Of a stretch of 64,000 nt of DNA, positions 74-23,051 are shown piece after piece. Position 1 is the stretch's first letter. Every line of letters begins with the position of its first letter. Location of the stretch: the sequence record OR525702.1. One strand, 5' to 3'. The stretch is from Escherichia phage vB-Eco-KMB23. Under the pieces are notes generated by a model. The model was given only the letters and a program-made list of their open reading frames with translations, searched no databases and was not told where the DNA came from. Both the position numbers and the translations under genes were made by a program.

Positions 74-1639
74 ATGACTATCAAAACTAAAGCTGAACTT
101 TTGAACAAATGGAAGCCATTACTGGAAGGTGAAGGTTTACCGGAAATTGCTAATAGCAAACAAGCGATTATCGCTAAAATCTTTGAAAACCAGGAAAAAG
201 ATTTCCAGACAGCTCCAGAATACAAAGACGAAAAAATCGCTCAGGCGTTCGGTTCTTTCTTAACAGAAGCTGAAATCGGTGGTGACCACGGTTACAACGC
301 TACTAACATCGCTGCTGGTCAGACTTCTGGCGCAGTAACTCAGATTGGCCCAGCTGTTATGGGTATGGTACGTCGTGCTATTCCTAACCTGATTGCTTTC
401 GATATTTGCGGTGTTCAGCCGATGAACAGCCCGACTGGCCAGGTATTCGCACTGCGTGCAGTATATGGTAAAGACCCAATCGCTGCTGGTGCTAAAGAAG
501 CATTCCACCCAATGTATGGTCCAGATGCAATGTTCTCTGGTCAGGGTGCTGCTAAGAAATTCCCAGCTCTGGCTGCTAGTACACAAACCGTTGTGGGTGA
601 TATCTATACTCACTTCTTCCAGGAAACTGGTACTGTGTATCTGCAAGCTTCCGCTGTAGTAACAATCGATGCTAGTGCTAACGATGCAACTAAACTGGAT
701 GCTGAAATTAAGAAACAAATGGAAGCTGGCGTACTGGTAGAAATCGCTGAAGGTATGGCTACTTCTATCGCTGAACTTCAGGAAGGTTTCAACGGTTCTA
801 CCGATAACCCATGGAATGAAATGGGCTTCCGTATCGATAAACAAGTTATTGAAGCTAAATCTCGTCAGCTGAAAGCTGCTTACTCTATCGAATTAGCACA
901 AGACCTCCGCGCTGTTCACGGTATGGATGCTGATGCTGAACTGTCTGGTATTCTGGCTACCGAAATCATGCTGGAAATCAACCGTGAAGTTGTTGATTGG
1001 ATTAACTACTCAGCTCAGGTTGGTAAATCTGGTATGACCCTGACTCCGGGTTCTAAAGCTGGTGTATTTGACTTCCAGGATCCGATTGATATTCGTGGTG
1101 CTCGCTGGGCGGGTGAATCCTTTAAAGCTCTGTTGTTCCAGATTGACAAAGAAGCAGTTGAAATTGCTCGTCAGACCGGTCGTGGTGAAGGTAACTTCAT
1201 TATCGCTTCCCGTAACGTAGTTAACGTTCTGGCTTCAGTTGATACTGGCATTTCTTATGCTGCACAGGGTCTGGCTACCGGCTTTAACACTGATACTACC
1301 AAGTCAGTATTTGCTGGTGTTCTGGGTGGTAAATACCGTGTATATATCGACCAGTATGCTAAACAGGATTATTTCACTGTAGGTTATAAAGGTCCGAACG
1401 AAATGGATGCTGGTATTTACTATGCTCCATATGTAGCTCTGACTCCGCTGCGTGGTTCCGATCCGAAGAACTTCCAACCGGTAATGGGATTCAAAACTCG
1501 TTACGGTATCGGTATCAACCCATTTGCGGAATCCGCTGCTCAGGCTCCGGCTTCTCGCATCCAGAGCGGTATGCCTTCTATTCTGAATAGCCTTGGTAAA
1601 AACGCTTACTTCCGCCGTGTATATGTTAAAGGTATCTAA
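74..1639 (+). CDS. 23: major capsid protein gp23 precursor (521 aa)
   Basis: Full ORF with ATG start; sequence and length match T4 gp23 (MTIKTKAELLNKWKPLLEGEGLPEIANSK...); strong hairpin terminator follows. Confidence 0.97.
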   Translation: MTIKTKAELLNKWKPLLEGEGLPEIANSKQAIIAKIFENQEKDFQTAPEYKDEKIAQAFGSFLTEAEIGGDHGYNATNIAAGQTSGAVTQIGPAVMGMVRRAIPNLIAFDICGVQPMNSPTGQVFALRAVYGKDPIAAGAKEAFHPMYGPDAMFSGQGAAKKFPALAASTQTVVGDIYTHFFQETGTVYLQASAVVTIDASANDATKLDAEIKKQMEAGVLVEIAEGMATSIAELQEGFNGSTDNPWNEMGFRIDKQVIEAKSRQLKAAYSIELAQDLRAVHGMDADAELSGILATEIMLEINREVVDWINYSAQVGKSGMTLTPGSKAGVFDFQDPIDIRGARWAGESFKALLFQIDKEAVEIARQTGRGEGNFIIASRNVVNVLASVDTGISYAAQGLATGFNTDTTKSVFAGVLGGKYRVYIDQYAKQDYFTVGYKGPNEMDAGIYYAPYVALTPLRGSDPKNFQPVMGFKTRYGIGINPFAESAAQAPASRIQSGMPSILNSLGKNAYFRRVYVKGI

Positions 1640-1654
1640 TCTTTGACGATTTAA

Positions 1655-1684
1655 GGGACCTTCGGGTCCCTTTAGTTGTTTTTA
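1655..1684 (+). terminator. intrinsic terminator after gene 23
   Basis: Hairpin GGGACC-TTCG-GGTCCC followed by T-rich run, directly after the gene 23 stop. Confidence 0.7.
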
Positions 1685-1687
1685 TGG

Positions 1688-1695
1688 TATAAATA
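1688..1695 (+). promoter_or_regulatory. T4-type late promoter (TATAAATA) for gene 24
   Basis: Exact TATAAATA about 28 bp upstream of the gene 24 ATG. Confidence 0.6.
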
Positions 1696-1722
1696 AATCA
1701 TATAAACCAAAAGGAAAGCGCA

Positions 1723-3006
1723 ATGGCTAAAATCAACGAACTTCTGCGCGAATCAACCACAACGAATAGCAACTCAATCGGTCGCCCAAATCTCGTTGCT
1801 TTGACTCGCGCTACCACTAAATTAATATATTCTGACATTGTAGCAACGCAAAGAACTAATCAACCTGTTGCTGCTTTTTATGGTATCAAATACCTTAACC
1901 CGGATAACGAATTTACATTTAAAACTGGTGCTACTTACGCTGGCGAAGCTGGATACGTAGACCGAGAACAAATCACAGAATTAACAGAAGAGTCTAAATT
2001 AACTCTCAATAAAGGCGATTTATTCAAATATAATAATATCGTTTATAAAGTATTAGAAAATACACCATTTGCTGATATTGAAGAAAGTGATTTAGAATTA
2101 GCTCTTCAGATTGCAATTGTTCTTTTAAAGGTTCGTCTATTTTCTGATGCTGCAGTAACAAGCAAATTTGAAAGCTCTGATAGTGAAATTGCGGATGCTA
2201 GATTCCAGATTAATAAATGGCAAACCGCAGTTAAATCTCGTAAACTTAAAACTGGCATCACAGTTGAATTAGCACAAGATTTAGAAGCAAACGGATTCGA
2301 TGCTCCTAATTTCTTGGAAGATTTGCTTGCAACTGAAATGGCGGATGAAATCAATAAAGATATTCTGCAGTCTTTGATTACAGTGTCAAAACGCTATAAA
2401 GTTACAGGAATTACTGATACTGGATTCATTGATTTGAGTTATGCATCTGCCCCTGAAGCTGGTCGTTCATTATACCGAATGGTGTGTGAAATGGTTTCAC
2501 ATATCCAGAAAGAATCAACTTATACAGCAACGTTCTGTGTTGCTTCAGCTCGTGCCGCTGCGATTCTTGCTGCATCAGGTTGGTTAAAACATAAACCGGA
2601 AGATGATAAATATCTTTCACAAAATGCCTACGGGTTCTTAGCTAATGGTTTACCGCTTTATTGCGATACCAACAGCCCATTAGATTATGTAATCGTTGGC
2701 GTAGTAGAAAATATCGGTGAAAAAGAAATTGTTGGATCAATTTTCTATGCTCCGTATACAGAAGGTCTTGACTTAGATGACCCTGAACATGTAGGTGCAT
2801 TTAAAGTTGTAGTTGATCCAGAAAGTTTGCAGCCATCTATCGGTTTATTAGTTAGATATGCTTTATCTGCAAATCCTTACACTGTAGCAAAAGATGAAAA
2901 AGAAGCAAGAATAATTGATGGTGGAGACATGGATAAAATGGCGGGTCGTTCAGATTTGTCTGTTTTATTAGGTGTTAAGCTACCAAAAATTATCATTGAT
3001 GAATAA
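1723..3006 (+). CDS. 24: head vertex protein gp24 (427 aa)
   Basis: Length and position after gene 23 as in T4; capsid-fold paralogue of gp23. Confidence 0.95.
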   Translation: MAKINELLRESTTTNSNSIGRPNLVALTRATTKLIYSDIVATQRTNQPVAAFYGIKYLNPDNEFTFKTGATYAGEAGYVDREQITELTEESKLTLNKGDLFKYNNIVYKVLENTPFADIEESDLELALQIAIVLLKVRLFSDAAVTSKFESSDSEIADARFQINKWQTAVKSRKLKTGITVELAQDLEANGFDAPNFLEDLLATEMADEINKDILQSLITVSKRYKVTGITDTGFIDLSYASAPEAGRSLYRMVCEMVSHIQKESTYTATFCVASARAAAILAASGWLKHKPEDDKYLSQNAYGFLANGLPLYCDTNSPLDYVIVGVVENIGEKEIVGSIFYAPYTEGLDLDDPEHVGAFKVVVDPESLQPSIGLLVRYALSANPYTVAKDEKEARIIDGGDMDKMAGRSDLSVLLGVKLPKIIIDE

Positions 3007-3011
3007 AACAA

Positions 3012-3036
3012 AGGGACCTTTCGGTCCCTTTTTATT
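3012..3036. terminator. bidirectional hairpin terminator between 24 (+) and rnlB (-)
   Basis: AGGGACC-TTTCG-GTCCCT hairpin flanked by an A-run upstream and T-run downstream, between convergent genes. Confidence 0.65.
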
Positions 3037-4040
3037 TAACTTACCAATTCAATCCAAGCCGGACGAAGTACATCTTGTACCATTTTAACTAATTCCTTTT
3101 TAATCAAAGAAGGATTATCCGCTTGAGTTAGAGTAATACCTTCACGAGAAGTTTCTTCCAAAATATCTTGAACAGTTAGTCCCATCACCTTTCCAAAATC
3201 TTTTGGACCAATTTCGCCAATTTTAGAAATAACGTTATTTACTCGGTTCAGTGTAACATAACAAGCTAAAATTCCCAGCAATTTATTATCAGCTTCTGAC
3301 AACTCAACTTTAGCTTTAATAGGCTTATCAGACTTTTTCTTTTCACTAAATTTAGAGTTCTTGCATTTGATGGCTACACGATTGCGATTAGGCAGCCAAG
3401 AAGGATAACAAGGTTTCAATACATATCCTTCAGCAGTAAATACTTCGCCTTTTGCTTCAGCATTCCAAACGCATTTATTTGCATCAACTAATCCAGCATG
3501 GTCTACTGTAAAATTATAATCTTGGACGACAGAATCTAAATCATTTGGCAATTTAATAAGTTCTTCAAATTTACCGCGACCTAAAAGTGGAGCCATTTTA
3601 AATTTAAATGTATTACAAAATGATTCCATCATATAATCATCGACATAAGTTACATCACCACTTTCTGTAGTAACAATAATGTCAAATACATAAAAATCTT
3701 TATCGCCATAATCGACATTCTTCTGAATGCCAGGTCCAGCGAATTCGCCAAAAACTTGATAAGATACAACCGCTGAAGTTTCCATAATATCTTGTACTGC
3801 TTTAATAGAATCAGCGTAATTCTTTAAAATAATTTCATACCCAAAGAAATCTTCAGCAGGAAGAATAGGACCAGTTCGTTTAGCACAAGTTACTTTATCA
3901 CGCTCAATAATCAATGAGAAATTTGTGCCATGAATCTTTTCACGAGCTACCCATTCGCCGCCAGTCAATCCTAAACTGTAAAGTTTTTCAATGAATTTAG
4001 AATTGTAATGATTTTCAAGACTGCTATACTTTTTAAACAT
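3036..4040 (-). CDS. rnlB: RNA ligase 2 (Rnl2, 334 aa)
   Basis: 334 aa; nucleotidyltransferase KxHGxN motif ([10 protein letters not shown]) near the N-terminus; position after gene 24 as in T4. Confidence 0.93.
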
Positions 4041-4049
4041 AATTAATCC

Positions 4050-4328
4050 TCAAAATGTAATTTCTAACCAATCACCATCACGCTGATCACTATTGACTTT
4101 AAAGCTAAATCCTTCTTTTCTCAGCCAATCACCAATTTCTTCAGTAATCAATTTATCGCGAGCAGTACAATAATAACTAAAATATGTTTTACCTTGTTCA
4201 GCTGCTTTATTAGCAAGTTCCGAAAAATCTTTAATAAAACACTCTAGCTTAAACTGTTTACTTTTAAGTGCTTTTTCACGTAATTGATTAGCAAAAGATT
4301 CATTTTCATAAAGATCATACTGTTCCAT
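4050..4328 (-). CDS. hypothetical protein (T4 24.2 position)
   Basis: 92-aa ORF with ATG start in the T4 24.2 slot; tightly packed with neighbours. Confidence 0.6.
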   Translation of the reverse strand: MEQYDLYENESFANQLREKALKSKQFKLECFIKDFSELANKAAEQGKTYFSYYCTARDKLITEEIGDWLRKEGFSFKVNSDQRDGDWLEITF

Positions 4329-4530
4329 TTTTCACCTTTTTATTAATATGCCTTTTTCTATAGACAACTTTTTCTCGAGTTTCAAATTTATTCTTAGCAG
4401 TCATAGCTCGAGCCCATAATACAGCCACTTCCTTTGCCTGTAAGTTCAATTCACGAGCAATTTCAATGAATGACTTTCCAGACTCATGAAGAGTAAACAC
4501 CACAACCTCAGTTCTCATAATCAATCTCAT
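4315..4530 (-). CDS. hypothetical small protein with possible HTH (T4 24.3 position)
   Basis: 71-aa ORF; segment SFIEIARELNLQAKEVAVLWARA resembles a helix-turn-helix; alternative ATG at 4518. Confidence 0.5.
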   Translation of the reverse strand: MRLIMRTEVVVFTLHESGKSFIEIARELNLQAKEVAVLWARAMTAKNKFETREKVVYRKRHINKKVKNGTV

Positions 4531-4589
4531 GTTATCGAGTTGGTGCCATTATATACATCATTTTCTGAGTGTGTTTTGTGTGCTTTCAA

Positions 4590-4615
4590 AATGAAGAAAG
4601 GGGCCGAAGCCCCTT
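4590..4615 (-). terminator. intrinsic terminator downstream of hoc
   Basis: GGGGC-TTCG-GCCCC hairpin followed on the - strand by a T-rich run, just after the hoc stop. Confidence 0.6.
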
Positions 4616-4619
4616 ATGA

Positions 4620-6038
4620 TTATGGATAGGTATAGATGATACCAGTTTCTAAAGCAGTTTTATGAATGATGTATCCATTACGTGATTCTTGAACATCAAC
4701 TTCTGGATAGTCTTTCATCATCTTCTGAAGGGTGTAACGATGCAGGTAGTATTTACTATCTGGATCTTCAGTTTTCCAATCTTTACCTTCTTCGGTCATT
4801 TTTTGGATTTCATCCATAACCCACCAACCGCACCAGATATAAGCCGAAGTACGATGTGGAAGAGGATGAACATAAGGCAATTCACCTTCTGGTTCTGGAG
4901 CAACTTTATCAGTTACCTGAACTTGACCTTCTGCTGTGATAGTTTTGCTATCATAATCAGTAGCAGTAACAGTTGCAGTAACTTCAATAGTTTGACTTCC
5001 AATAGATGATGTATCAACAGTGTATACATTAGTTGACCCTTCTACTGGAGAAGAATCTTTCTTCCATGAATATTCGATTTGTGCTTCTTCTGGAGCATCC
5101 GTAACATTAGCAGTAAATGTAGCCGAAGCATCTTGCTGAACGTTAATAGAAGGAGGAGTCAATGTAACCTGTGGATTCATTGTCTTCTTATTAACTGTTA
5201 ATGATACTTCATTAGAAGTAACTGTTTTTGCGTCATAATCTGTTGCTGTTACTTGCGCTACGCATTTAATTCTTTTTACTCCACTTGTAGTTGGAGTATA
5301 GCTAAATGTAGCAGAAGTCGCTTCACCAATTTGAGAATCATCTACATACCACTGATACGTAGCAGATGCCCCATCAGGTTGAGAAGCTAAGGCAGCGGTA
5401 AATTCAACGGCTGTTCCAATCACTCCAGCTGGAGGACTATCAGGAGTTACTGCCAAGGTAGTCGTCTGCGTCTTTTTATTAACAGTCAATGATACTTCAT
5501 TAGAAGTAACGCTTAGTGCATCATAATCTGCCGCAGTTACTTGAGCTACACACTTGATTTTTTTAACTCCGCTTGTGTCAGGAGTGTAATTGAATGTAGC
5601 GTCAGTTGCTTCGTCTACAGGAGAACCGTCAACGTGCCATTGATACGTAGCGTTTGCACCTGATGGCTGTGAAGCTAAGGCAGCGGTAAATTGAACGGCT
5701 GTTCCGATTACTCCTTCCGGAGGACTAGCAGGAGTTACGGCTAATGTAGTTGTCTGTGTCTTATTTTGAACCGTGATAGTTGTCGTAGTTTCTGCTGTTT
5801 CAGGTTCAGATTCTGCAACTTGATTGGTTGCAACTACTTTAATAGTCTTTTGACCGGCAGGTCCTTTTAGTACATAACTAAAAGTTGCTGACGTTTCTTC
5901 CTGTGGAGCGTCGTCTACAGTCCAAGCATATGTAATAGGTCCATCTCCAGTTTGACCACTGGGTGTAGCAGTAAACTGCTGAGTCTGATCTATAACTCCA
6001 GTAGGTGTTTTAGGAGTTATATCAACTGTAAAAGCCAT
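4620..6038 (-). CDS. hoc: highly immunogenic outer capsid protein Hoc, expanded form (472 aa)
   Basis: Repeated Ig-like modules plus C-terminal capsid-binding region; T4 hoc position; about 96 aa longer than T4 Hoc as I recall it (376 aa). Confidence 0.88.
   Translation of the reverse strand: MAFTVDITPKTPTGVIDQTQQFTATPSGQTGDGPITYAWTVDDAPQEETSATFSYVLKGPAGQKTIKVVATNQVAESEPETAETTTTITVQNKTQTTTLAVTPASPPEGVIGTAVQFTAALASQPSGANATYQWHVDGSPVDEATDATFNYTPDTSGVKKIKCVAQVTAADYDALSVTSNEVSLTVNKKTQTTTLAVTPDSPPAGVIGTAVEFTAALASQPDGASATYQWYVDDSQIGEATSATFSYTPTTSGVKRIKCVAQVTATDYDAKTVTSNEVSLTVNKKTMNPQVTLTPPSINVQQDASATFTANVTDAPEEAQIEYSWKKDSSPVEGSTNVYTVDTSSIGSQTIEVTATVTATDYDSKTITAEGQVQVTDKVAPEPEGELPYVHPLPHRTSAYIWCGWWVMDEIQKMTEEGKDWKTEDPDSKYYLHRYTLQKMMKDYPEVDVQESRNGYIIHKTALETGIIYTYP
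5176..5763. repeat. tandem duplication (2 x 288 bp) inside hoc encoding two near-identical Ig-like domains
   Basis: Direct repeat with period 288 bp (e.g. TTATTAAC(T/A)GT(T/C)AATGATACTTCATTAGAAGTAAC at 5188 and 5476); encoded 96-aa units are roughly 85 percent identical. Confidence 0.85.
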
Positions 6039-6047
6039 AAGTTATCC

Positions 6048-6728
6048 TTATTTTAATGTTACGAAAGAAGAATTACGTGTTTCACGAATTAGAACTGATC
6101 CGTCGCGATTAATGTAATAAATTAAGCTAAATAAAGTTTGGTGTGCTGACGCATGCTCAAAACTAGTTGGGTGAGATTTCCAATCCGGAGTTTCAGCAAT
6201 CCACTGGTAAATCCACCAAGGAACAGTGCAGAATCCTGGATTTTTTCCAATCAGCTGAAGATTCGGACTAAAGTTTTCCGGAAGAGTAAATACAGACGGC
6301 TTCTCAGATTCAATAATCTCAGCTACAGCCTGTTCGAATTTTTCTTCAACAAAAGGAGTATCTTCAATCAAAACATCGGTATTTTCAGGAATTTTATCCG
6401 TTTCTACTACTTCAATTTTAATGTCAGATTTAACCGGAGAATCAATCAGAAGTGCTGCCTCTGGATTGACTTCTTCATCGTCATATTTTAATCCGTCTGC
6501 AGCATCAGCAGCATCAATTAAGTCTTTAATAGATAACCCATCAGTCTCTGGCATAGGTTCACTAGCGAGCTTCTGGAGGGCTTCTTCAATATCATTAACG
6601 ATATTATCAAAAGATTTATTCTTTTTGACTTTTATACCAAACTGTTCAGCATATTCAGCTAATTTAGCTTTAGCTTCTTTATTATCATCAAGAGCCTTCA
6701 GCTCTGCAATATAATCTTTATCTATCAT
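6048..6728 (-). CDS. inh: inhibitor of prohead protease Inh (226 aa)
   Basis: 226 aa, acidic; position between hoc and uvsW as in T4. Confidence 0.8.
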   Translation of the reverse strand: MIDKDYIAELKALDDNKEAKAKLAEYAEQFGIKVKKNKSFDNIVNDIEEALQKLASEPMPETDGLSIKDLIDAADAADGLKYDDEEVNPEAALLIDSPVKSDIKIEVVETDKIPENTDVLIEDTPFVEEKFEQAVAEIIESEKPSVFTLPENFSPNLQLIGKNPGFCTVPWWIYQWIAETPDWKSHPTSFEHASAHQTLFSLIYYINRDGSVLIRETRNSSFVTLK

Positions 6729-6778
6729 AATATTTCCTCAGTATAAATATAGATATATTTATTACATGGTATTTAGAC

Positions 6779-8290
6779 ATGACTGACATTAAAGTACATT
6801 TTTATGATTTTAGTCACGTGAGAATTGATTGTGAAGAAAGTACATTTCATGAACTCCGTGATTTCTTTAGCTTTGAAGCTGATGGGTATCGTTTTAATCC
6901 GAAGTACAAATATGGCCACTGGGATGGACGAATTCGTCTTTTAGATTATAATCGCCTTCTTCCATTCGGCTTAGTCGGGCAAATTAAAAAGTTCTGTGAT
7001 AACTTTGGCTATAAAGCCTGGATTGACCCACAAATTAACGAAAAAGAAGAATTATCAAGAAAAGATTTTGATGAATGGCTTTCTAAATTAGAAATCTATT
7101 CAGGAAATAAAAGAATTGAACCGCACTGGTATCAAAAAGATGCAGTGTTCGAAGGATTAGTTAATCGTCGTAGAATTCTTAATCTTCCAACATCCGCTGG
7201 TAAATCGTTAATTCAAGCTTTGCTTGCGCGATATTATTTGGAAAATTATGAAGGTAAAATTCTTATCATTGTTCCAACAACTGCCTTAACAACTCAGATG
7301 GCTGATGACTTTGTTGACTATCGTTTATTCAGTCATGCAATGATAAAGAAAATTGGTGGCGGAGCATCAAAAGATGATAAATATAAAAATGATGCACCGG
7401 TCGTTGTTGGTACATGGCAAACTGTAGTAAAACAACCAAAAGAATGGTTCTCACAGTTTGGAATGATGATGAATGATGAATGCCATCTTGCTACAGGAAA
7501 AAGTATTTCATCTATCATATCTGGTTTAAATAACTGCATGTTCAAATTCGGTTTGTCCGGTTCATTACGTGATGGCAAAGCTAATATCATGCAGTATGTT
7601 GGAATGTTTGGTGAAATATTTAAGCCAGTAACGACTTCTAAGTTAATGGAAGATGGACAAGTAACTGAGCTAAAAATTAATAGTATTTTTCTTCGCTATC
7701 CCGATGAGTTCACTACTAAATTAAAGGGAAAAACTTATCAAGAAGAAATAAAAATTATTACGGGGCTTAGTAAAAGAAATAAATGGATCGCTAAATTGGC
7801 TATTAAGCTTGCACAAAAAGATGAAAACGCTTTTGTCATGTTTAAACATGTATCACATGGTAAAGCTATTTTCGATTTAATTAAAAATGAATACGATAAA
7901 GTTTATTACGTATCAGGGGAAGTTGATACCGAAACCCGCAATATAATGAAAACCTTAGCTGAAAACGGTAAAGGAATAATTATAGTCGCTAGTTATGGTG
8001 TATTTTCTACTGGTATTTCAGTTAAAAATCTGCATCACGTTGTTTTAGCGCACGGTGTTAAATCAAAAATCATTGTATTACAAACAATCGGTCGTGTATT
8101 ACGTAAGCACGGTTCTAAGACAATAGCAACCGTCTGGGACCTCATCGATGATTGTGGTGTTAAGCCAAAATCTGCTAATACGAAAAAGAAATACGTTCAT
8201 TTGAACTATCTTTTAAAACATGGCATTGATCGTATTCAGCGCTACGCAGATGAAAAATTTAATTACGTAATGAAAACAGTTAATTTATAA
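6779..8290 (+). CDS. uvsW: UvsW DNA/RNA helicase (503 aa)
   Basis: SF2 helicase motifs: Walker A LPTSAGKS and DExH-like MMNDECH; T4 position and length. Confidence 0.95.
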   Translation: MTDIKVHFYDFSHVRIDCEESTFHELRDFFSFEADGYRFNPKYKYGHWDGRIRLLDYNRLLPFGLVGQIKKFCDNFGYKAWIDPQINEKEELSRKDFDEWLSKLEIYSGNKRIEPHWYQKDAVFEGLVNRRRILNLPTSAGKSLIQALLARYYLENYEGKILIIVPTTALTTQMADDFVDYRLFSHAMIKKIGGGASKDDKYKNDAPVVVGTWQTVVKQPKEWFSQFGMMMNDECHLATGKSISSIISGLNNCMFKFGLSGSLRDGKANIMQYVGMFGEIFKPVTTSKLMEDGQVTELKINSIFLRYPDEFTTKLKGKTYQEEIKIITGLSKRNKWIAKLAIKLAQKDENAFVMFKHVSHGKAIFDLIKNEYDKVYYVSGEVDTETRNIMKTLAENGKGIIIVASYGVFSTGISVKNLHHVVLAHGVKSKIIVLQTIGRVLRKHGSKTIATVWDLIDDCGVKPKSANTKKKYVHLNYLLKHGIDRIQRYADEKFNYVMKTVNL

Positions 8291-15851: not shown

Positions 15852-16816
15852 TGTATTCTTTAGAGGAATTTAATAATCAAGCAATAAACGCAGATTTTCA
15901 ACGTAATAATATGTTTAGCTGCGTTTTTGCGACAACTCCATCAACTAAAAGCTCTTCGTTGATAAGTTCAATTAGTAACTTTTCTTATAATAACTTGGGT
16001 CTAAATTCAGATTGGTTAGGATTGACTCAAGGCGATATTAATCAGGGAATTACCACGCTAATTACTGCTGGCACACAAAAACTGATAAGAAAATCAGGGG
16101 TTAGTAAATATCTTATTGGTGCCATGAGTCAACGTACAGTTCAAAGTTTATTGGGCTCATTTACAGTTGGTACATATTTAATTGACTTCTTTAACATGGC
16201 ATATAACTCATCTGGATTGATGATATATTCTGTAAAAATGCCAGAGAATAGATTATCCTATGAAACTGACTGGAACTATAATTCTCCTAATATTCGTATA
16301 ACTGGGAGAGAATTAGACCCTTTGGTTATTTCATTTAGGATGGATTCAGAAGCTTGTAACTATCGTGCGATGCAAGACTGGGTTAACGCTGTTCAAGACC
16401 CAGTAACTGGATTGCGTGCTTTGCCACAAGATGTCGAGGCAGATATTCAGGTTAATCTTCATGCTCGTAATGGATTACCTCATACTGCGGTGATGTTCAC
16501 TGGATGCATTCCAATATCAGTGAGCGCTCCTGAGTTATCATATGATGGAGATAACCAAATAACTACATTTGATGTTACTTTTGCGTATAGAGTGATGCAG
16601 GCTGGAGCAGTTGATAGACAAGCTGCGCTTGAATGGCTTGAATCTGCTGCTATAAATGGTATTCAAAGCGTTCTCGGAAATAGTGGAGGTGTTACTGGAC
16701 TATCTAATTCGCTTTCACGACTCAGTAGATTAGGTGGAACTGCAGGAAGCATTTCAAACATTAATACTATGACAGGAATTGTCAATTCGCAAAGTAAAAT
16801 ATTAGGAGCAATATAA
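15851..16816 (+). CDS. 54: baseplate tail-tube initiator gp54 (321 aa)
   Basis: 321 aa; start overlaps the gene 48 stop; T4 synteny. Confidence 0.93.
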   Translation: MYSLEEFNNQAINADFQRNNMFSCVFATTPSTKSSSLISSISNFSYNNLGLNSDWLGLTQGDINQGITTLITAGTQKLIRKSGVSKYLIGAMSQRTVQSLLGSFTVGTYLIDFFNMAYNSSGLMIYSVKMPENRLSYETDWNYNSPNIRITGRELDPLVISFRMDSEACNYRAMQDWVNAVQDPVTGLRALPQDVEADIQVNLHARNGLPHTAVMFTGCIPISVSAPELSYDGDNQITTFDVTFAYRVMQAGAVDRQAALEWLESAAINGIQSVLGNSGGVTGLSNSLSRLSRLGGTAGSISNINTMTGIVNSQSKILGAI

Positions 16817-16820
16817 CAAC

Positions 16821-16850
16821 GGGGACCTTTCGGTCCCCATATTTTTATTT
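16821..16850 (+). terminator. intrinsic terminator after gene 54
   Basis: GGGGACC-TTTCG-GTCCCC hairpin followed by ATATTTTTATTT. Confidence 0.7.
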
Positions 16851-17135
16851 GCGGAATGAAATGAAAGCAGAAACTGAAGCAACTAAACTATCTTCAATAT
16901 AAACTTCAATTTTTACCGGAGCTTCTGACTCAAATTTACCTGTTACTACACCTTGGAAAATACTTTCAGTTTGTTCTGGCTTTGAAAAATTTTCAGAAGG
17001 AAAAATTCCGAACTTTTTATCTGTTCCAAAAATTTTAATAAATTCATCGTAAACTGCTTCATTAAAAGCATTATCAACAGGAATAACGCCTTCAACTACA
17101 AGTTCTTGACCTAAAAAGCGTAAAGAAGATTTCAT
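16845..17135 (-). CDS. hypothetical protein (alt.-3 position, 96 aa)
   Basis: ORF with ATG and GAGGA RBS, downstream of an early promoter cassette. Confidence 0.6.
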   Translation of the reverse strand: MKSSLRFLGQELVVEGVIPVDNAFNEAVYDEFIKIFGTDKKFGIFPSENFSKPEQTESIFQGVVTGKFESEAPVKIEVYIEDSLVASVSAFISFRK

Positions 17136-17159
17136 TTTGTGTTCCTCATGTTATGTCAG

Positions 17160-17196
17160 TAAGACTACTATAACACAACACGAGGGACTTGTAAAC
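17160..17196 (-). promoter_or_regulatory. T4-type early promoter (GTTTAC -35, TATAGT -10) for the alt.-3-like ORF
   Basis: - strand GTTTAC, 18-nt spacer, TG-n-TATAGT; part of a 54-bp cassette identical to 32464..32520. Confidence 0.55.
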
Positions 17197-19253
17197 TACA
17201 TTTTGAACTTTTTAGACATTCCGTTGATGTTAACCAAAGAAGCTAAGATTTGAGAAACTTCGTTTTCCTCTTCTTTTGATTCTTCTACAAGGAATTGATT
17301 AAATCCAGTCATTGGACGAACTTCACCAGTTTCCATTAAATGGTCGCCATCATATACTGATTCTTCTAATTGTTCAGAAGGAGGAACGATTGTGCCTTCG
17401 ATTAAATACTTGTTATAAGCAGTTTCTTTCATCATGTACGTGCTCACTTTATTAATCTTCAGCAAAATTCCACGCGGTAAAATAACTTCAGCTTCTGATG
17501 GAAATCCTGATAAATGACCTGGAACGATAACTTTGATTCGCTCAGCCCCTTTAATTACCATACCTACGCTAGTTTCAGCATCTTCATTAGCATATGCGGA
17601 ATGACTACCCATATGCATTAAATCTTCAGCATCAACTGAACCTTCTCCTTCACCAGAAAATACTGCACTGGAATCATCTAAAGCCATATAGTTTTTACCA
17701 TACTCACCGAAGATATTTGGTTTAAGCGATGTTGATACGAAGTTCTTGAAATAGAACATTTTATTTTCAATATTATGGCGTAAAGTTTTAAAAGTAACTT
17801 CTTGTCCACGATAAAGCGTAGTTCCTGGAGGAAGAACTGATCCTTTGGCGAATGCAGAATCCAGCGTCTCGATGTGTTTAATAGCTCGTTCCATGTATTC
17901 TTCACGAGTAGAATCTGGTTTACCCAAGAGGAACGAGTTCATTTCAACATATGAATCTGCACAATAATCTTCAATTACATCGGACTCAGCCTGAGTTAAT
18001 CCTTTTGGGGGTACTTCAGTACTTGCATATTCATACGCTTGAGAAGCAGACTCATTAATCAATTTATAAATGCCATTCATGACAAATTGAATAATAGCTA
18101 CCTTTTCATCTGGCGTGGCTTTAGAACCTTTAACTAAATCATTGACAATTTTCTTAATAACATCAAAGCTATTAGAAATATTAATGTCAGCAAGATCGCT
18201 CAAAATTTTATCGGTTTTATAATCAAAGAATTCTTTATTCTTTAAATATTCCTGAGAACCTTGATATGTTATATCGCTCTGTAATTTAATAGATGGATCA
18301 CGTAAACGCGCATGGGCCAATGCAATATGATTTCGGAAGCTTTCTAGTTCATAATCGTTAGATTTAAAACGAGAAGCACTCCTCATACCACCGATAGCTC
18401 CTTTGCTGAAGTTTGAACCAATCTGAATAACGCCAGAGTTCATTGGTCCTTCTGCTTTATATACCGGAACTTTAGATTCAAACTCTTGATATTTCTTAGC
18501 GGCGAAGCTATCACCCTGAAGTGAAGCATCAACAGTAGAATATTGAGCTTGTGCTGCTAATCGACGACTAATTTTAGTTTTCTGAATAACAGCTTGATCC
18601 GTGCGCTTATCATTTTCTAAAGCAATAGAAGCAGCAACAGCAACAGCTTTAGGAACAGCATTACCTGTTTTAACATCTACATAAACATCACCAACCTTTG
18701 ATTCAACTTTTGTGAATAACTCAGTTGAAATAGGAGGTACACCTGGAATGTCTTCTAAATTGGCATTTTTACGGTAAACCATAATATATGCATACTTTTT
18801 ATCATAATCCCAGATTTCCTTTAAAAGAACATATCGACCTGCTCCTTTAGTACGTACTAAACGGTCAGCAATAACTTGCATTTGACGAGCAGCGCCATTT
18901 GTTTTACTTTTTAGTACGCGGAATAGGCATGCGTCAATTTTATACTGTTTCATTGTTTGAAGAGCAGTATCAAAAACCGCATTAATGACACCAATTGGAT
19001 TTCCACCCAAGTTTTTAAGTTTAACTAATGATAGTTTCTCATTAACACCTATCATTACGATATGCATCATTTTATCGCCTGGCTTAACGTTTTTATTTGT
19101 ATCACCGCCAGAGGTGTATGTACAAAATCTAAATCCAGGAAGCACGCTTTCTTCACCAGCTTGAATAGCAAAAATTTGAGGTATTTTATGCTTAGGATTT
19201 AAGTTAACAACCGGCGCCGAAGCGCCGTCAAATAATTCTGTAATAAGTTCCAT
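17196..19253 (-). CDS. Alt-like ADP-ribosyltransferase paralogue (685 aa)
   Basis: N-terminal ~230 aa closely parallel the adjacent alt product (MELITELFD...); ART-like motifs LYRGQ, FVSTSL, SEAEVILPRG. Confidence 0.85.
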   Translation of the reverse strand: MELITELFDGASAPVVNLNPKHKIPQIFAIQAGEESVLPGFRFCTYTSGGDTNKNVKPGDKMMHIVMIGVNEKLSLVKLKNLGGNPIGVINAVFDTALQTMKQYKIDACLFRVLKSKTNGAARQMQVIADRLVRTKGAGRYVLLKEIWDYDKKYAYIMVYRKNANLEDIPGVPPISTELFTKVESKVGDVYVDVKTGNAVPKAVAVAASIALENDKRTDQAVIQKTKISRRLAAQAQYSTVDASLQGDSFAAKKYQEFESKVPVYKAEGPMNSGVIQIGSNFSKGAIGGMRSASRFKSNDYELESFRNHIALAHARLRDPSIKLQSDITYQGSQEYLKNKEFFDYKTDKILSDLADINISNSFDVIKKIVNDLVKGSKATPDEKVAIIQFVMNGIYKLINESASQAYEYASTEVPPKGLTQAESDVIEDYCADSYVEMNSFLLGKPDSTREEYMERAIKHIETLDSAFAKGSVLPPGTTLYRGQEVTFKTLRHNIENKMFYFKNFVSTSLKPNIFGEYGKNYMALDDSSAVFSGEGEGSVDAEDLMHMGSHSAYANEDAETSVGMVIKGAERIKVIVPGHLSGFPSEAEVILPRGILLKINKVSTYMMKETAYNKYLIEGTIVPPSEQLEESVYDGDHLMETGEVRPMTGFNQFLVEESKEEENEVSQILASLVNINGMSKKFKM

Positions 19254-19256
19254 GAT

Positions 19257-21353
19257 TTATCCTTGAACGAACTTGTAAGGCATGTTTGTAATATCTATGC
19301 AAGACGCAATAATTCCAAGAGATGATTCTACTTTTTGTTTAACATTTGATGAAACAAATGATGCAAAATCAACTCTGTCTTCTATTTCAATATCACCTGT
19401 CATTGCAACTACTTCACCAGTTTCCATTAGACGATCACCGTCATAAATTACTGATTCGGTGAGTTCTTCCGTAGTCATAACTTCAGCTTGAATGAGTTTT
19501 GTATTATTAGATGTTGTTCCGTCATTATTAGAAGCATCAGTTATTTTATTAACTTTGACCATCAATCCGCGTGGTAGAATAACTTCAGCTTCTGTTGCTA
19601 TTCCGAGACTTCCTGGATATACAACATTAACTTTATGAGCTCCATCAATTGCCCATCCTATTTGAACTTTAACGTATTCAGGATTTTCTTTATACGCTCT
19701 TATTTCGTTTGGATTAATAGTTATTCCTTCTTCATTTTTATCAACTGTCAATTCATTACGAGCTTCTGGTTCTAAAAGACCAATACCAGCATGTGTAATT
19801 CCAAAACGTCCAAAAATGATAGGAGTTAAAGAAGTAGATACAAAATTTCTGAAATAGAATACTTTATTTTTAACTAGTGCTTCGTATATAGGAGCAGTCA
19901 TACTTTGAGCACGATAAACTGTAATGCCTTCTGGTATACGGTCACCATTTTCAAAAGCTGAATCTAAGTTATTTATAGCAGATTCAATTTCTTTTTCACT
20001 CATTACATCATATCGTTCTGGATTGTAGCGTCCTAAAAGAAGATTATTGATGTCAGTATATCCTGAACCACAATACTCTCTAATACCACGCTTTTGTGAT
20101 GGAGTATATTTAGAACCATCACGAGCAATAGTAATATCAATCATTGGACCTGCACCAATTCCAGAAAAGCTATAAATCATTCGTTTGAGGAATTTAGTTT
20201 TTGCTGCGTTCCAGGAATTTTTAGTTATTTCTTCCCAGACTTCATCTGACTGCCCTTTACGAGTTTTATTATGTTTATCAAGCCAATTATCTTTATATTC
20301 TTCAAAGAATTGATTAACAGCTGCTGCGTATTTCTCTAAACATTTTATTGAAGTAGTTGGTTCATTTTTAATCGCATTAAGAATTACATCTTTAATTTTT
20401 TCAGAAACTTCATTAACCTCACTTTTTGAAAAGAATTTATAGTCATAATGAAGTTCATCTGCAGTTCCTTCAGCAATAATTTTTGCTGCTTTAGTTTTAG
20501 AAGCCAATGAATTAATTCCAAGTTTCATTTCTTCTGCTTCGGGAATTAAAGGAGCGGTAGCAGGTTTATTGAAATTAGCTGCGGTAGATTCATACTTCTG
20601 GAATAATTCACTTTCAAATCTAGAAGATTCTAATGATTGACTTTGTGCAATTGCTCTACGGGAAATTTTAACTTTAACGATTACAGCTTGGTCAGAACGT
20701 TTATCATTTTCTTGCGCAATAGATGCAGCAATTGCCTCATTTTTAGTTACTTGAGCTCCAGTATCTTTATTGATATAAACATCACCGACCTTCGATTCAA
20801 CTTTAGTAAAGAGCTCGGTACTAATTTCCGGAACTCCTGGAATGTCTTCTAGTGATACATTTTTGCGATGTATAAGAATATATGCATACTTTTTATCGTA
20901 ATCCCAGAGTTCCTTAAGAAGGACGTATCTGCCACCTGAACGACTGCGGATAAGTCTATCAGCAATAAGTTGAATTTGACGAGCTTGACCAGCAGTTTTA
21001 GACTTAAGAATACGGAGCATACAGGCATCAATTTTATACTGACGCATCGTCTGCATCGCAACAGTAAAAACTGAATTGATGTAATTAATTGGGCTTGGAC
21101 CGAGACCTTTTAATTTAGCAATTGAACCTTTAGCAGTTAATGTAAAAGGAACAATATGCATCATTTTATCGCCCATCTTTAAATCGCGATTAGTATCACC
21201 TCCAGATGTATAGGTACATAAACGAAAGCCTGGTTGTTCAATTGCGTCATCAACATGAACTGAAAAAATTTGTGGTATTTTCTTCTTTGGATTTAAGTTT
21301 GTAATCGGAAGAGTAGTATCTTCGTCAAATAATTCTGTAATGAGTTCCATCAT
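19257..21353 (-). CDS. alt: Alt ADP-ribosyltransferase, head-packaged (698 aa)
   Basis: Matches T4 Alt as recalled; N-terminal MELITE capsid-targeting region; motifs VYRAQ, FVSTSL, TEAEVILPRG; late promoter upstream. Confidence 0.92.
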   Translation of the reverse strand: MMELITELFDEDTTLPITNLNPKKKIPQIFSVHVDDAIEQPGFRLCTYTSGGDTNRDLKMGDKMMHIVPFTLTAKGSIAKLKGLGPSPINYINSVFTVAMQTMRQYKIDACMLRILKSKTAGQARQIQLIADRLIRSRSGGRYVLLKELWDYDKKYAYILIHRKNVSLEDIPGVPEISTELFTKVESKVGDVYINKDTGAQVTKNEAIAASIAQENDKRSDQAVIVKVKISRRAIAQSQSLESSRFESELFQKYESTAANFNKPATAPLIPEAEEMKLGINSLASKTKAAKIIAEGTADELHYDYKFFSKSEVNEVSEKIKDVILNAIKNEPTTSIKCLEKYAAAVNQFFEEYKDNWLDKHNKTRKGQSDEVWEEITKNSWNAAKTKFLKRMIYSFSGIGAGPMIDITIARDGSKYTPSQKRGIREYCGSGYTDINNLLLGRYNPERYDVMSEKEIESAINNLDSAFENGDRIPEGITVYRAQSMTAPIYEALVKNKVFYFRNFVSTSLTPIIFGRFGITHAGIGLLEPEARNELTVDKNEEGITINPNEIRAYKENPEYVKVQIGWAIDGAHKVNVVYPGSLGIATEAEVILPRGLMVKVNKITDASNNDGTTSNNTKLIQAEVMTTEELTESVIYDGDRLMETGEVVAMTGDIEIEDRVDFASFVSSNVKQKVESSLGIIASCIDITNMPYKFVQG

Positions 21354-21373
21354 ATCCTCTCTAGTGTTTATTC

Positions 21374-21381
21374 TATTTATA
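21374..21381 (-). promoter_or_regulatory. late promoter TATAAATA for alt
   Basis: TATAAATA on the - strand about 20 bp upstream of the alt ATG. Confidence 0.55.
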
Positions 21382-21388
21382 AAATTAA

Positions 21389-21402
21389 AGGCCCGAAGGC
21401 CT
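21389..21402 (-). terminator. hairpin terminator between the gene 30 operon and alt
   Basis: AGGCC-CGAA-GGCCT hairpin followed on the - strand by a T-rich tract. Confidence 0.5.
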
Positions 21403-21591
21403 TTAATAATCTATTGGTAAGAGAGTACGATATATTTCAAACTTTGGACCTTTTTCATAAGCATCAAATGTTTCTGTGAATTTATTATAAGCATATGCAT
21501 CTATAAATTCAATCATAATTTGTGATACAGAAGTAGAAACATCTCCACCTTCTTTTTGAGCAACGACAATTGTTTCTAAGTAAGCTTTCAT
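21403..21591 (-). CDS. hypothetical small protein (62 aa) coupled to the gene 30 stop
   Basis: ATG overlaps the gene 30 stop (ATGA); acidic protein; no recognisable motif. Confidence 0.5.
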   Translation of the reverse strand: MKAYLETIVVAQKEGGDVSTSVSQIMIEFIDAYAYNKFTETFDAYEKGPKFEIYRTLLPIDY

Positions 21592-23051
21592 AGACCAGTT
21601 ACCTCATGAAAATCACCAAATACATCCTCGAATGTATTAGCTTTAGTTTTATCTTCACGTAAACGAATCGCAATTGGAAGAAATAATTTTACATAATCGG
21701 TGCGGCCATCAGATTTTAGCCAACCGTTGCATTCGCACTCTAGAATTTTTCCAATATAATAATTTTGGTTTTCCATAATGCGAGTACGGTCAAGTTCATG
21801 TGATTTTACACCGGCTTTATCTTTTAAGCCTGAACCAGCATTTACTTTAATTTTTCCACACTCTGATTCAAGAATAAATCCACCTGCTTTAGTAGGGTCT
21901 TTACGGTGAGGATAAATTCCTACAATTTTTAAATCAACATCAATTACTTCTTTAAATTTATAGAGATTTTTTGAACGAGCATTTTCCCACAATCCATCGG
22001 TATTTTTGAGAATAATACCTTCAAGACCTTGGTCAATATATTTTTTATAAATTACCTTAGCTTCATCTAGGTTATTTACTACCTGGTTTTCAATTAAAAT
22101 TACTTTATCATAGCCTGATGTCATTTGTTCTAGTTTAGAAAAACGTACATCATATTTTAAACGAAACGCCGGAAGACCATATATTTCTACTAATGGAACA
22201 TAGTCCCAGACCTGAAACTTCATGCATTGTGCTTCTTTTTCAGAAATGGTTCCCTTTAAAGATTTATTAGCGATTCCATTAGAAGTAGTACGTGATTCAG
22301 CTACTTCAGCGAATTCTTTAGCTTTACTAATTTCAGGATAAGCATCAAAAAGAAAATCTAGGCCTTCTGGTTCCTTTTCAACTTGCTCATGGTATACCAA
22401 TTCGCCATCAATTAACACACCTTCTGGATGAATCTGGCGGGCTTCAGCGGTCATTTTGATTAACTCTTCTTTAAGAAGATCTAATCCTAGATATTCATTA
22501 CCAGCTCGTGATAAAAGACGAACATCATCTAATTCATCACCTCTGACTTCAGCAAAGCACCGAGCTCCATCAGCTTTTAATTGGGCAAAGGCTGGAAATT
22601 TGATATTCTTATTAATGCCTTTTTCATCATAAGAACTTGCCAGCATTTGAGGTTGTTCAGGAATTAAACCTGGCCAAACTTTGTTTGCAATAGATACTGA
22701 AGCACCGCATTCAAGGTCTCGCATCATCACTCGACGCAAAACTTCAACATCATCTTTTTTACCATCGGTGATATATCCAATTAATTCCTCAATTGCCGCA
22801 TTTCCAGTCAATTTCCGAGTAGCTAACGTGAATTCAATGAAGTCAAGCATATCGGTAATAGTCAGCATCCCAAAACTCTGGGTAGCAATACCGGGTTTAG
22901 GCCATTTCTTTATATAATACTGTAACCCACGAGAATAAGTCAGACGATATACTCGTTTGAGCAATTCATTATCTTTATTCTTTTCAAGAATTGCTTGCTT
23001 CTGCTTAGTTGAACCAATAGATGCTATTTCGTTCAGAATTTTAAGAATCAT
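21588..23051 (-). CDS. 30: ATP-dependent DNA ligase gp30 (487 aa)
   Basis: 487 aa as in T4; adenylation motif KADGAR (LKADGARCFAEV). Confidence 0.96.
   Translation of the reverse strand: MILKILNEIASIGSTKQKQAILEKNKDNELLKRVYRLTYSRGLQYYIKKWPKPGIATQSFGMLTITDMLDFIEFTLATRKLTGNAAIEELIGYITDGKKDDVEVLRRVMMRDLECGASVSIANKVWPGLIPEQPQMLASSYDEKGINKNIKFPAFAQLKADGARCFAEVRGDELDDVRLLSRAGNEYLGLDLLKEELIKMTAEARQIHPEGVLIDGELVYHEQVEKEPEGLDFLFDAYPEISKAKEFAEVAESRTTSNGIANKSLKGTISEKEAQCMKFQVWDYVPLVEIYGLPAFRLKYDVRFSKLEQMTSGYDKVILIENQVVNNLDEAKVIYKKYIDQGLEGIILKNTDGLWENARSKNLYKFKEVIDVDLKIVGIYPHRKDPTKAGGFILESECGKIKVNAGSGLKDKAGVKSHELDRTRIMENQNYYIGKILECECNGWLKSDGRTDYVKLFLPIAIRLREDKTKANTFEDVFGDFHEVTGL

Follow-up and report, generated by a model that had tools for sequence, protein, structure and literature searches.

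Two adjacent genes of Escherichia phage vB-Eco-KMB23, alt and alt2, encode members of the Alt family of ADP-ribosyltransferases (ARTs). They are located in a stretch of 64,000 nucleotides (nt) of record OR525702.1, the whole of which is referred to here as the window, and probably form a late operon. Their products would be two arginine-type (R-S-ExE) mono-ADP-ribosyltransferases that are packaged in the phage head and injected, most likely with different host targets. Judged on sequence comparison and on analogy with Alt of phage T4, this reading has a probability of about 0.65.

Family membership and divergence of Alt and Alt2

By every sequence-level criterion tried, both genes are members of the Alt family, within the Alt/VIP2 clade of R-S-E ARTs. 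The ART domain PF03496 (ADPrib_exo_Tox, gathering cut-off 23.4 bits) is matched by Alt2 with 72.9 bits (E = 3e-20) and by Alt with 129 bits (E = 1.8e-37). PHROG 802 ('Alt-like RNA polymerase ADP-ribosyltransferase') covers residues 1-685 of Alt2 (E = 8.7e-256) and 1-697 of Alt (E = 1.7e-272), and the full architecture of N-terminal domain (N-domain), centre, ART domain and tail is found in both. In each protein, a propeptide of 6 residues precedes the N-domain, which is of alpha/beta type; the centre is helical, the ART domain resembles those of C3 and Vis, and the C-terminus is formed by an acidic propeptide. According to precomputed Pfam annotation, nearly all full-length homologues carry the pair PF03496 and PF26846, and PF03496 is found in 55 of the 57 family representatives. 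Structural modeling also predicts an ART fold for the catalytic domain, and the genes sit at the genomic position of the family, between gene 30/alt.1 and alt.-3/gene 54. A PDB sequence search with Alt2 gave no match at E <= 0.01, and no NCBIfam model matched Alt or Alt2.

The catalytic signature R / S-T-S / E-x-E is intact and in order in both proteins. Among 21 close homologues, no substitution is seen at the Alt2 residues R482, S507, S509, E587 and E589, and conservation of these positions is still at least 90% in the 57 representatives, whose mean identity is 25%. An earlier note on this DNA, made from the letters alone, had described adjacent open reading frames (ORFs) of 685 and 698 amino acids (aa) as two tandem Alt-like ART paralogues, and would have given up this view if the downstream copy lacked the catalytic residues. 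Both ORFs were found, at 17196-19253 and 19257-21353 of the minus strand, and both are intact, with PF03496, PHROG 802 and catalytic residues; none of the latter is lost from the downstream copy after alignment (R482, S507-T-S509, E587-A-E589). The motifs quoted in that note (LYRGQ or VYRAQ, FVSTS, EAEVILPRG and the MELITELFD start) are all present as well. Its further proposals of a closely parallel N-terminus of ~230 aa, of diverging central regions and of a MELITELFD start resembling a prohead-protease cleavage region hold too, as detailed below.

Two other assignments of these proteins were considered and rejected. The first is the enzymatic component of a binary toxin (VIP2, iota Ia or C2-I type), since the N-domain of Alt is not a second ART fold. 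The second is a MuF-fused or polyvalent ART, since PF03496 is the sole Pfam domain recognized in Alt, in Alt2 and in 55 of 57 relatives; Alt has also been placed outside the genuine polyvalent proteins by Iyer et al. (PMC5512222).

Over their full length, Alt and Alt2 are 41% identical (BLASTP, E = 3e-164). The N-domain is the most conserved part of both, with about 66% aa identity and 60-78% nt identity over the N-terminal ~238 aa. The central ~170 aa share 17-24% identity and are unrelated at the sequence level, and profile-profile comparison with hhalign gives them a homology probability of only 2%, although the profiles are shallow and replacement is indistinguishable from extreme divergence. 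The identity of the ART domains is about 37-38% and that of the tails about 38%, while the stretch between the S-T-S and ExE motifs reaches 8-23%. The tandem duplication is visible in the DNA itself as diverged direct repeats spaced about 2094-2103 nt. Recent gene conversion between alt and alt2 in this phage was rejected, given a longest common exact run of 21 nt and the above nt identity of the N-domain.

T4 Alt is cleaved by the prohead protease gp21 after ITE-6 and, as seen by mass spectrometry, after LTE-619 (PMC5694885). Candidate gp21 motifs are recognized at both ends of the proteins described here: ITE6 in Alt and Alt2, LTE632 in Alt, and LEE631 in Alt2, the MELITE start corresponding to the published ITE-6 site. 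Residues E6 and E631 of Alt2 align with the two T4 sites and are at least 90% conserved family-wide. The predicted mature sizes are 70.1 kDa for Alt and 69.2 kDa for Alt2. The C-terminal propeptides are acidic (isoelectric point 4.2-4.6), and that of Alt2 appears disordered in the predicted model. They hold a near-invariant Y-D-G-D-x-L-M-E-T-G-E just past the point of cleavage and, close to their C-terminus, an invariant K-F. They might serve in targeting, tethering, or autoinhibition.

Among known systems, T4 Alt (gpAlt, NP_049811, 682 aa) shares with Alt2 the family, the slot, the domain plan, the catalytic signature, and the ITE-6 and L-x-E sites. It is 41-42% identical to Alt2 overall, and the central region of Alt2 is unrelated. 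Bacterial ART toxins of the C3-like, Vis and VIP2-iota types are only 14-24% identical to the Alt proteins which, unlike them, have no binary-toxin adaptor domain and would be delivered from the phage head instead of being secreted. The T4 enzymes ModA and ModB are small and carry neither the N-domain nor the propeptides. They also belong to the R-S-E clade and, according to the literature, modify host transcription and translation proteins; unlike Alt, they are expressed after infection and not packaged, and they are encoded elsewhere in the genome.

Distribution of alt2 and its losses

The earlier note did not settle whether the alt.-2/alt.-1 slot of T4 holds an intact equivalent of the second gene. 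It does not: T4 has only alt.-1 (61 aa) and alt.-2 (67 aa) there, for which GenBank gives 'old duplication of the first part of gene alt' and which arose from full-length alt2 by deletion. What T4 retains matches the first 351 nt of the alt2 region at 96.6% identity and the last 80 nt at 98.8%. The two copies of the 9-bp direct repeat CTAAAAAGT in alt2 are spaced 1,699 nt, which is the size of the T4 deletion, and the T4 pieces join at a single CTAAAAAGT copy. A further 1-nt deletion in an A-run of T4 creates the alt.-1 stop and splits the remnant into two ORFs. PHROGs 23015 and 15247, which were built on T4 alt.-1/alt.-2, match Alt2 far better than Alt. The T4 genes and alt2 descend from the same ancestral gene, the GenBank note describing the remnant and not the full-length ancestor. 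Neither this note nor that of phage RB32 ('apparent insertion') states the direction of events.

The 1,690-bp interval between the repeats, missing from T4, was detected in 401 records (counted at a coverage of at least 80%), and the flanking gp54/alt.-3 backbone in 499. The Alt2 segment is thus kept in about 401 of 499 records of Tequatrovirus, including T2, RB32, RB7, and the BASEL phage Bas37. The whole 4.85-kb segment with both genes is found in 343 records at 95-99% identity. Across all phage records, Alt homologues occur at 1,785 places in 1,222 records, and the 90%-identity cluster of Alt2 comprises 772 member sequences, the best database match being 99.5-99.6% identical. The Alt2 orthologues of Bas37 (bas37_0032), T2 (EcT2_00208), RB32 (RB32ORF194c), and SsoM_113 (alt_2) have the same length and position and 96-100% aa identity by region.

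The pair of alt and alt2 is therefore already known and annotated, and is the ordinary state of most T4 relatives. The novelty implied by the earlier note largely falls away, as the second gene is close to the routine annotated paralogue which that note had named as grounds for dropping its proposal. The usual annotation is 'Alt-like RNA polymerase ADP-ribosyltransferase (x2)' or alt_1/alt_2, whereas Bas37 in GenBank has 'ADP-ribosyltransferase Alt' and 'ADP-ribosyltransferase Alt2', and RB32 (2006) has 'alt.-2; apparent insertion; similar to alt'. Several T4-like phages with alt paralogues were listed by Nolan et al. in 2006 (PMC1524935). Since the duplication was noted both in the T4 annotation and in this comparative work, the pair itself adds nothing new. 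Its residual value lies in the targets of Alt2, a modest question that is useful to define.

Two very different alleles of alt are in circulation. The T4-type effector region (682-684 aa) occurs in 175 phage records and the T2-type (697 aa), to which the present phage belongs, in 333. Alt of this phage is 70% identical to T4 Alt in a mosaic fashion: 99% in the N-domain, 31% in the centre, 59-68% in the ART domain, and about 91% in the tail. All four pairings of Alt allele with Alt2 present or lost occur in the sample.

Other Tevenvirinae (E33, 44RR2.8t and RB49-like phages; PMC1524935) carry tandem Alt arrays in the same slot, with differing sequence and copy number (1-3). The Dhakavirus vB_EcoM-E33 has three tandem paralogues of 631, 693, and 707 aa there (1012-7124 of the segment compared). 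Copy b is closer to the T2-type Alt of the present phage (66% identity) than to the T4-type (47%), and copy c, adjoining alt.-3, is 49% identical to Alt2; b and c are the positional orthologues of Alt and Alt2. As these copies match Alt and Alt2 in order, the arrangement is older than the genus, and the two lineages predate the split between Tequatrovirus and Dhakavirus with their order kept. Copy a lacks the exact FVSTS and YDGD strings, and its activity and processing may differ. T4 is atypical at the alt locus, most relatives encoding two different Alt-family enzymes and sometimes three. Together with the existence of two alt alleles, this means that the view of Alt derived from T4 may cover only part of the ADP-ribosylation by T-even phages at infection.

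Besides T4, other phages have lost an intact alt2. In slur14 the deletion junction is identical to that of T4, but it lies beside a T2-type alt, which argues for a single T4/slur14 deletion event, since recombined. Elenatom carries a 14-nt frameshift deletion in alt2 (2981-5024 of the segment compared). In KAW1E185 alt and alt2 have recombined within nt 1754-1785, where they have the EAEVI codons of the ExE motif in common, leaving one chimeric gene (2981-5038 of the segment compared). Chimeras are also found among metagenomic proteins (P0003-P0007), where the N-terminus of Alt is joined to the body of Alt2 with crossovers at differing points of the N-domain.

These disrupted or deleted versions in T4, slur14, Elenatom, and KAW1E185 could be taken to mean that the downstream copy is a duplicate on its way to becoming a pseudogene. 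However, the ORF is full-length with all catalytic residues both here and in the intact loci sampled (10/10 alt2 orthologues at 685 aa), and the segment is kept in 401 of 499 records. The mean pairwise ratio of nonsynonymous to synonymous substitution rates (dN/dS) of the ten orthologues is 0.037 (N-domain 0.013, centre 0.074, ART domain 0.032, tail 0.036). On the evidence available, sequence comparison points to a working gene under strong purifying selection, and decay as a general account of the downstream copy is hardly credible. For alt2 of this phage, the intact ORF and the selection signal refute the pseudogene reading.

Proposed role of Alt2 and competing explanations

T4 heads contain about 40 copies of the core protein Alt, which leaves the head together with the DNA on ejection (PMC9026906). 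By analogy, both Alt and Alt2 would be synthesized late and would enter the prohead core by means of their common N-terminal module and the propeptides. Trimming by gp21 after ITE6 and after L-x-E631/632 would then yield mature proteins of about 69-70 kDa. These would be ejected with the DNA into the next host, and there would ADP-ribosylate host proteins in an NAD+-dependent manner, ahead of any phage gene expression. It is from the conserved cleavage-site glutamates and the shared N-domain that Alt2 is inferred to be packaged, processed, and injected like Alt. The stretch between S-T-S and ExE of C3-like ARTs holds substrate-recognition loops. Given the 8-23% identity in this stretch and the unrelated central domains, different substrates would be expected for the two enzymes, and Alt2 may act as a non-redundant second warhead and not as a spare copy. 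A precedent for divergence between variants is the recovery of plaquing against Mokosh type I with T4 Alt but not with Bas37 Alt (10.1101/2025.11.20.689424), an allele-specific rescue indicating that sequence differences in Alt matter functionally.

Transposon insertion data are available for Bas37 in the supplement of the HIDEN-SEQ preprint (10.1101/2025.11.20.689424). Its alt2 (bas37_0032) was hit at 116 of 164 TA sites (saturation 0.71, mean 44.5 reads per site) and classified as 'intermediate', a result that goes without comment in the preprint text. In contrast, alt (0.92, 203.6 reads) and alt.-3 (0.95, 169.7) are non-essential in the same data, with about 4-fold higher counts. This suggests that disruption of alt2 carries a fitness cost even on K-12. 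A search of the literature found no functional study, virion proteomics, or biochemistry of Alt2, and PMC12373910 and the BASEL paper do not discuss Alt.

Several points weigh against the proposal of a second injected enzyme with its own targets. The enzymatic activity and target divergence of Alt2, like its packaging, processing, and injection, are drawn from analogy and sequence, and divergence in sequence is no proof of divergence in targets. The putative late promoter of alt consists of a consensus octamer only. Loss of the gene has come about independently in at least three ways (the T4/slur14 deletion, the KAW1E185 crossover, and the Elenatom frameshift), and it is dispensable at least in the laboratory, because about 20% of Tequatrovirus records, T4 included, are without it. 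The 'intermediate' classification could reflect toxic truncated core proteins and not a loss of function, and some head genes known to be non-essential came out as essential in the same screen (10.1101/2025.11.20.689424).

An improbable alternative is that Alt2 is a redundant or dosage copy, likewise packaged and injected and with the same targets as Alt (RNA polymerase alpha and others), serving as a backup or raising the ART dose. The two proteins do share family, catalytic signature, and domain plan, T4 grows well without Alt2, and T4 Alt is itself promiscuous according to the cited literature. For a mere copy, however, a dN/dS held at 0.04 throughout the protein, and so also in a centre that it does not share with Alt, would be unexpected. 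Nor would it readily account for two lineages coexisting in the same order since before the Tequatrovirus/Dhakavirus split, or for a transposon tolerance of Bas37 alt2 unlike that of alt.

The location in a late operon among baseplate and head-related genes, and the depleted transposon insertions, which could indicate a role in assembly, have also been weighed as signs that Alt2 acts late in the producing cell or is mainly a structural component of the prohead core with secondary ART activity. This is more improbable still. Alt2 has the entire N-domain and the glutamates of both gp21 sites in common with Alt, which is packaged and ejected, as noted above (PMC9026906); the invariant catalytic residues would be needless in a purely structural protein; and head assembly proceeds without Alt2 in T4 and in about 20% of its relatives.

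Alt2 could instead be devoted mainly to counter-defence, ADP-ribosylating a host immunity protein or toxin, which differs from the proposed reading in purpose and not in mechanism. Alt of T4 reportedly contributes to the evasion of Mokosh type I and acts on MazF, effects that depend on the allele (10.1101/2025.11.20.689424), and the locus shows features of an arms race, with two very different Alt alleles (175 vs 333 records), chimeric genes, recurrent gains and losses, and a copy number of 1-3 per genome. On the other hand, no conditional effect of alt2 was seen in the Bas37 screens examined (log2 fold changes of 0.11 and 0.19, not significant), alt2 insertions are depleted even on K-12, and a dN/dS of 0.04 is unlike the diversifying pattern typical of counter-defence genes. 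Such a role is unlikely, although it deserves serious consideration.

The reading of Alt2 as an injected enzyme with its own targets can be extended to the N-domain. A search of 1.84 billion representative proteins with this domain found 69 relatives only, nearly all of 600-710 aa and with the domain at the N-terminus, and 55 of 57 of these N-domain relatives carry the ART domain. Against predicted viral structures, the modeled N-domain gives strong matches to Alt homologues and also matches large uncharacterised proteins of other myoviruses (E = 1e-9 to 1e-4, template modeling score about 0.5), including proteins annotated with Zeta-toxin, ParB/sulfiredoxin, and deaminase domains; the Zeta-toxin protein A0A2L0UZ96 of Atu_ph07 is one of these BFVD matches. 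These model-based matches fit a role as a carrier module for head-delivered effectors. It may be suggested, tentatively and with less than even confidence, that Alt2 is a non-redundant injected ART with its own targets, left unstudied due to the 1.7-kb deletion in T4, and that the ~230-aa N-domain, with a GNAT-like alpha/beta core, is a general head-packaging and ejection carrier recurring with other effector domains.

Locus layout and expression signals

The window comes from a T4-like genome of the genus Tequatrovirus, in which a conserved gp29-gp48-gp54 block on the plus strand lies beside the Alt locus. In the direction of transcription, the minus strand carries gene 30 (DNA ligase), alt.1, the 698-aa ORF, the 685-aa ORF, and alt.-3 (Table 1). 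Plus-strand ORFs within alt and alt2 are short and without support, and an Rfam scan of 16000-23000 gave no match.

Table 1. Features of the alt-alt2 locus, in window positions unless another segment is named.
Feature	Position	Strand	Details
alt, T2-type allele, 697 aa	19257..21350	-	ORF, PF03496, PHROG 802, T4 Alt comparison
Alt propeptide MELITE	21333-21350	-	
Alt N-domain, aa 7-248		-	followed by central helical region and ART domain
Alt R480	19911-19913	-	catalytic motif
Alt S505-T-S507	19830-19838	-	catalytic motif
Alt E587-A-E589	19584-19592	-	catalytic motif
Alt LTE632	19455-19457	-	predicted gp21 site
Alt C-propeptide	19260-19454	-	65 aa, acidic
alt2, second Alt paralogue, 685 aa	17196..19253	-	
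Alt2 propeptide MELITE	19236-19253	-	
Alt2 N-domain, aa 7-238	18540-19235	-	
Alt2 central helical region, aa 239-410	18024-18539	-	unrelated to that of Alt
Alt2 ART domain, aa 411-625	17379-18023	-	
Alt2 R482	17808-17810	-	catalytic motif
Alt2 S507-T-S509	17727-17735	-	catalytic motif
Alt2 E587-A-E589	17487-17495	-	catalytic motif
Alt2 LEE631	17361-17363	-	predicted gp21 site
Alt2 C-propeptide	17199-17360	-	54 aa, acidic
9-bp direct repeat CTAAAAAGT, upstream copy	18906..18914	-	left edge of T4 deletion
9-bp direct repeat CTAAAAAGT, downstream copy	17207..17215	-	right edge of T4 deletion
alt-alt2 junction	19254..19264	-	AAGGA 19260-19264 within alt end; alt stop TAA 19257-19259; 3-nt spacer; alt2 ATG 19253
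T4-type late promoter box TATAAATA	21374..21381	-	exact consensus match, 24 nt upstream of alt start
GC-rich hairpin AAAGGCCTTCGGGCCTTT, then T-rich stretch	21387..21404	-	overlaps alt.1 stop codon; sequence read
Early-type sigma-70 promoter (G)TTTACA-17-TATAGT with upstream TG	17167..17195	-	10/12 positions matched in scan
alt.-3, downstream neighbour, 96 aa, DUF5498	16845..17135	-	Pfam PF17602 E = 3e-63, T4 annotation
alt.1, upstream neighbour, 62 aa, 'Phage_blade'	21403..21591	-	Pfam PF24647 E = 7.5e-29, T4 annotation
T4 remnant of alt2	5034-5460		coordinates of T4 segment compared
T4 alt	5455-7503		coordinates of T4 segment compared

The mechanical ORF call for alt adds one extra Met (MMELITE..., 21351-21353), giving the length of 698 aa. 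The start is most likely the second ATG (697 aa, MELITE...), because the ribosome-binding site GAGG lies 5 nt from it and only 2 nt from the first ATG, and because T4, T2, and RB32 are annotated with the same start. The longer form is kept in some database entries (Bas37, P0083).

Expression of alt is probably insulated from upstream early transcription by the hairpin AAAGGCCTTCGGGCCTTT, which is likely a terminator. Both KAW1E185 and fPS-65 have a terminator annotated at the corresponding position, and a conserved terminator upstream of alt has been noted before (PMC1524935). The late-promoter octamer TATAAATA occurs 13 times in the window against 8.8 expected, so that the argument for a late promoter of alt is its position and not the match itself. 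At the alt-alt2 junction, a scan for promoters and terminators found neither. The late box before alt, the 3-nt gap, the AAGGA of alt2 itself, and the lack of signals in between suggest a late bicistron, as expected for head proteins.

The early-type promoter directly past the alt2 stop would serve alt.-3 and not alt2; the annotation of fPS-65 likewise has an early promoter at this position. In T4, escape from CmdTAC has been obtained by mutants with a C-terminal extension of Alt.-3 (PMC11618068), and alt.-3 insertions in Bas37 are depleted on the clinical strain CFT073 (log2 fold change -2.70, adjusted p = 0.02; 10.1101/2025.11.20.689424). Further downstream, a bidirectional GC-rich hairpin terminator at 16819-16840 separates the convergent genes 54 and alt.-3, and is also annotated in fPS-65 and KAW1E185.

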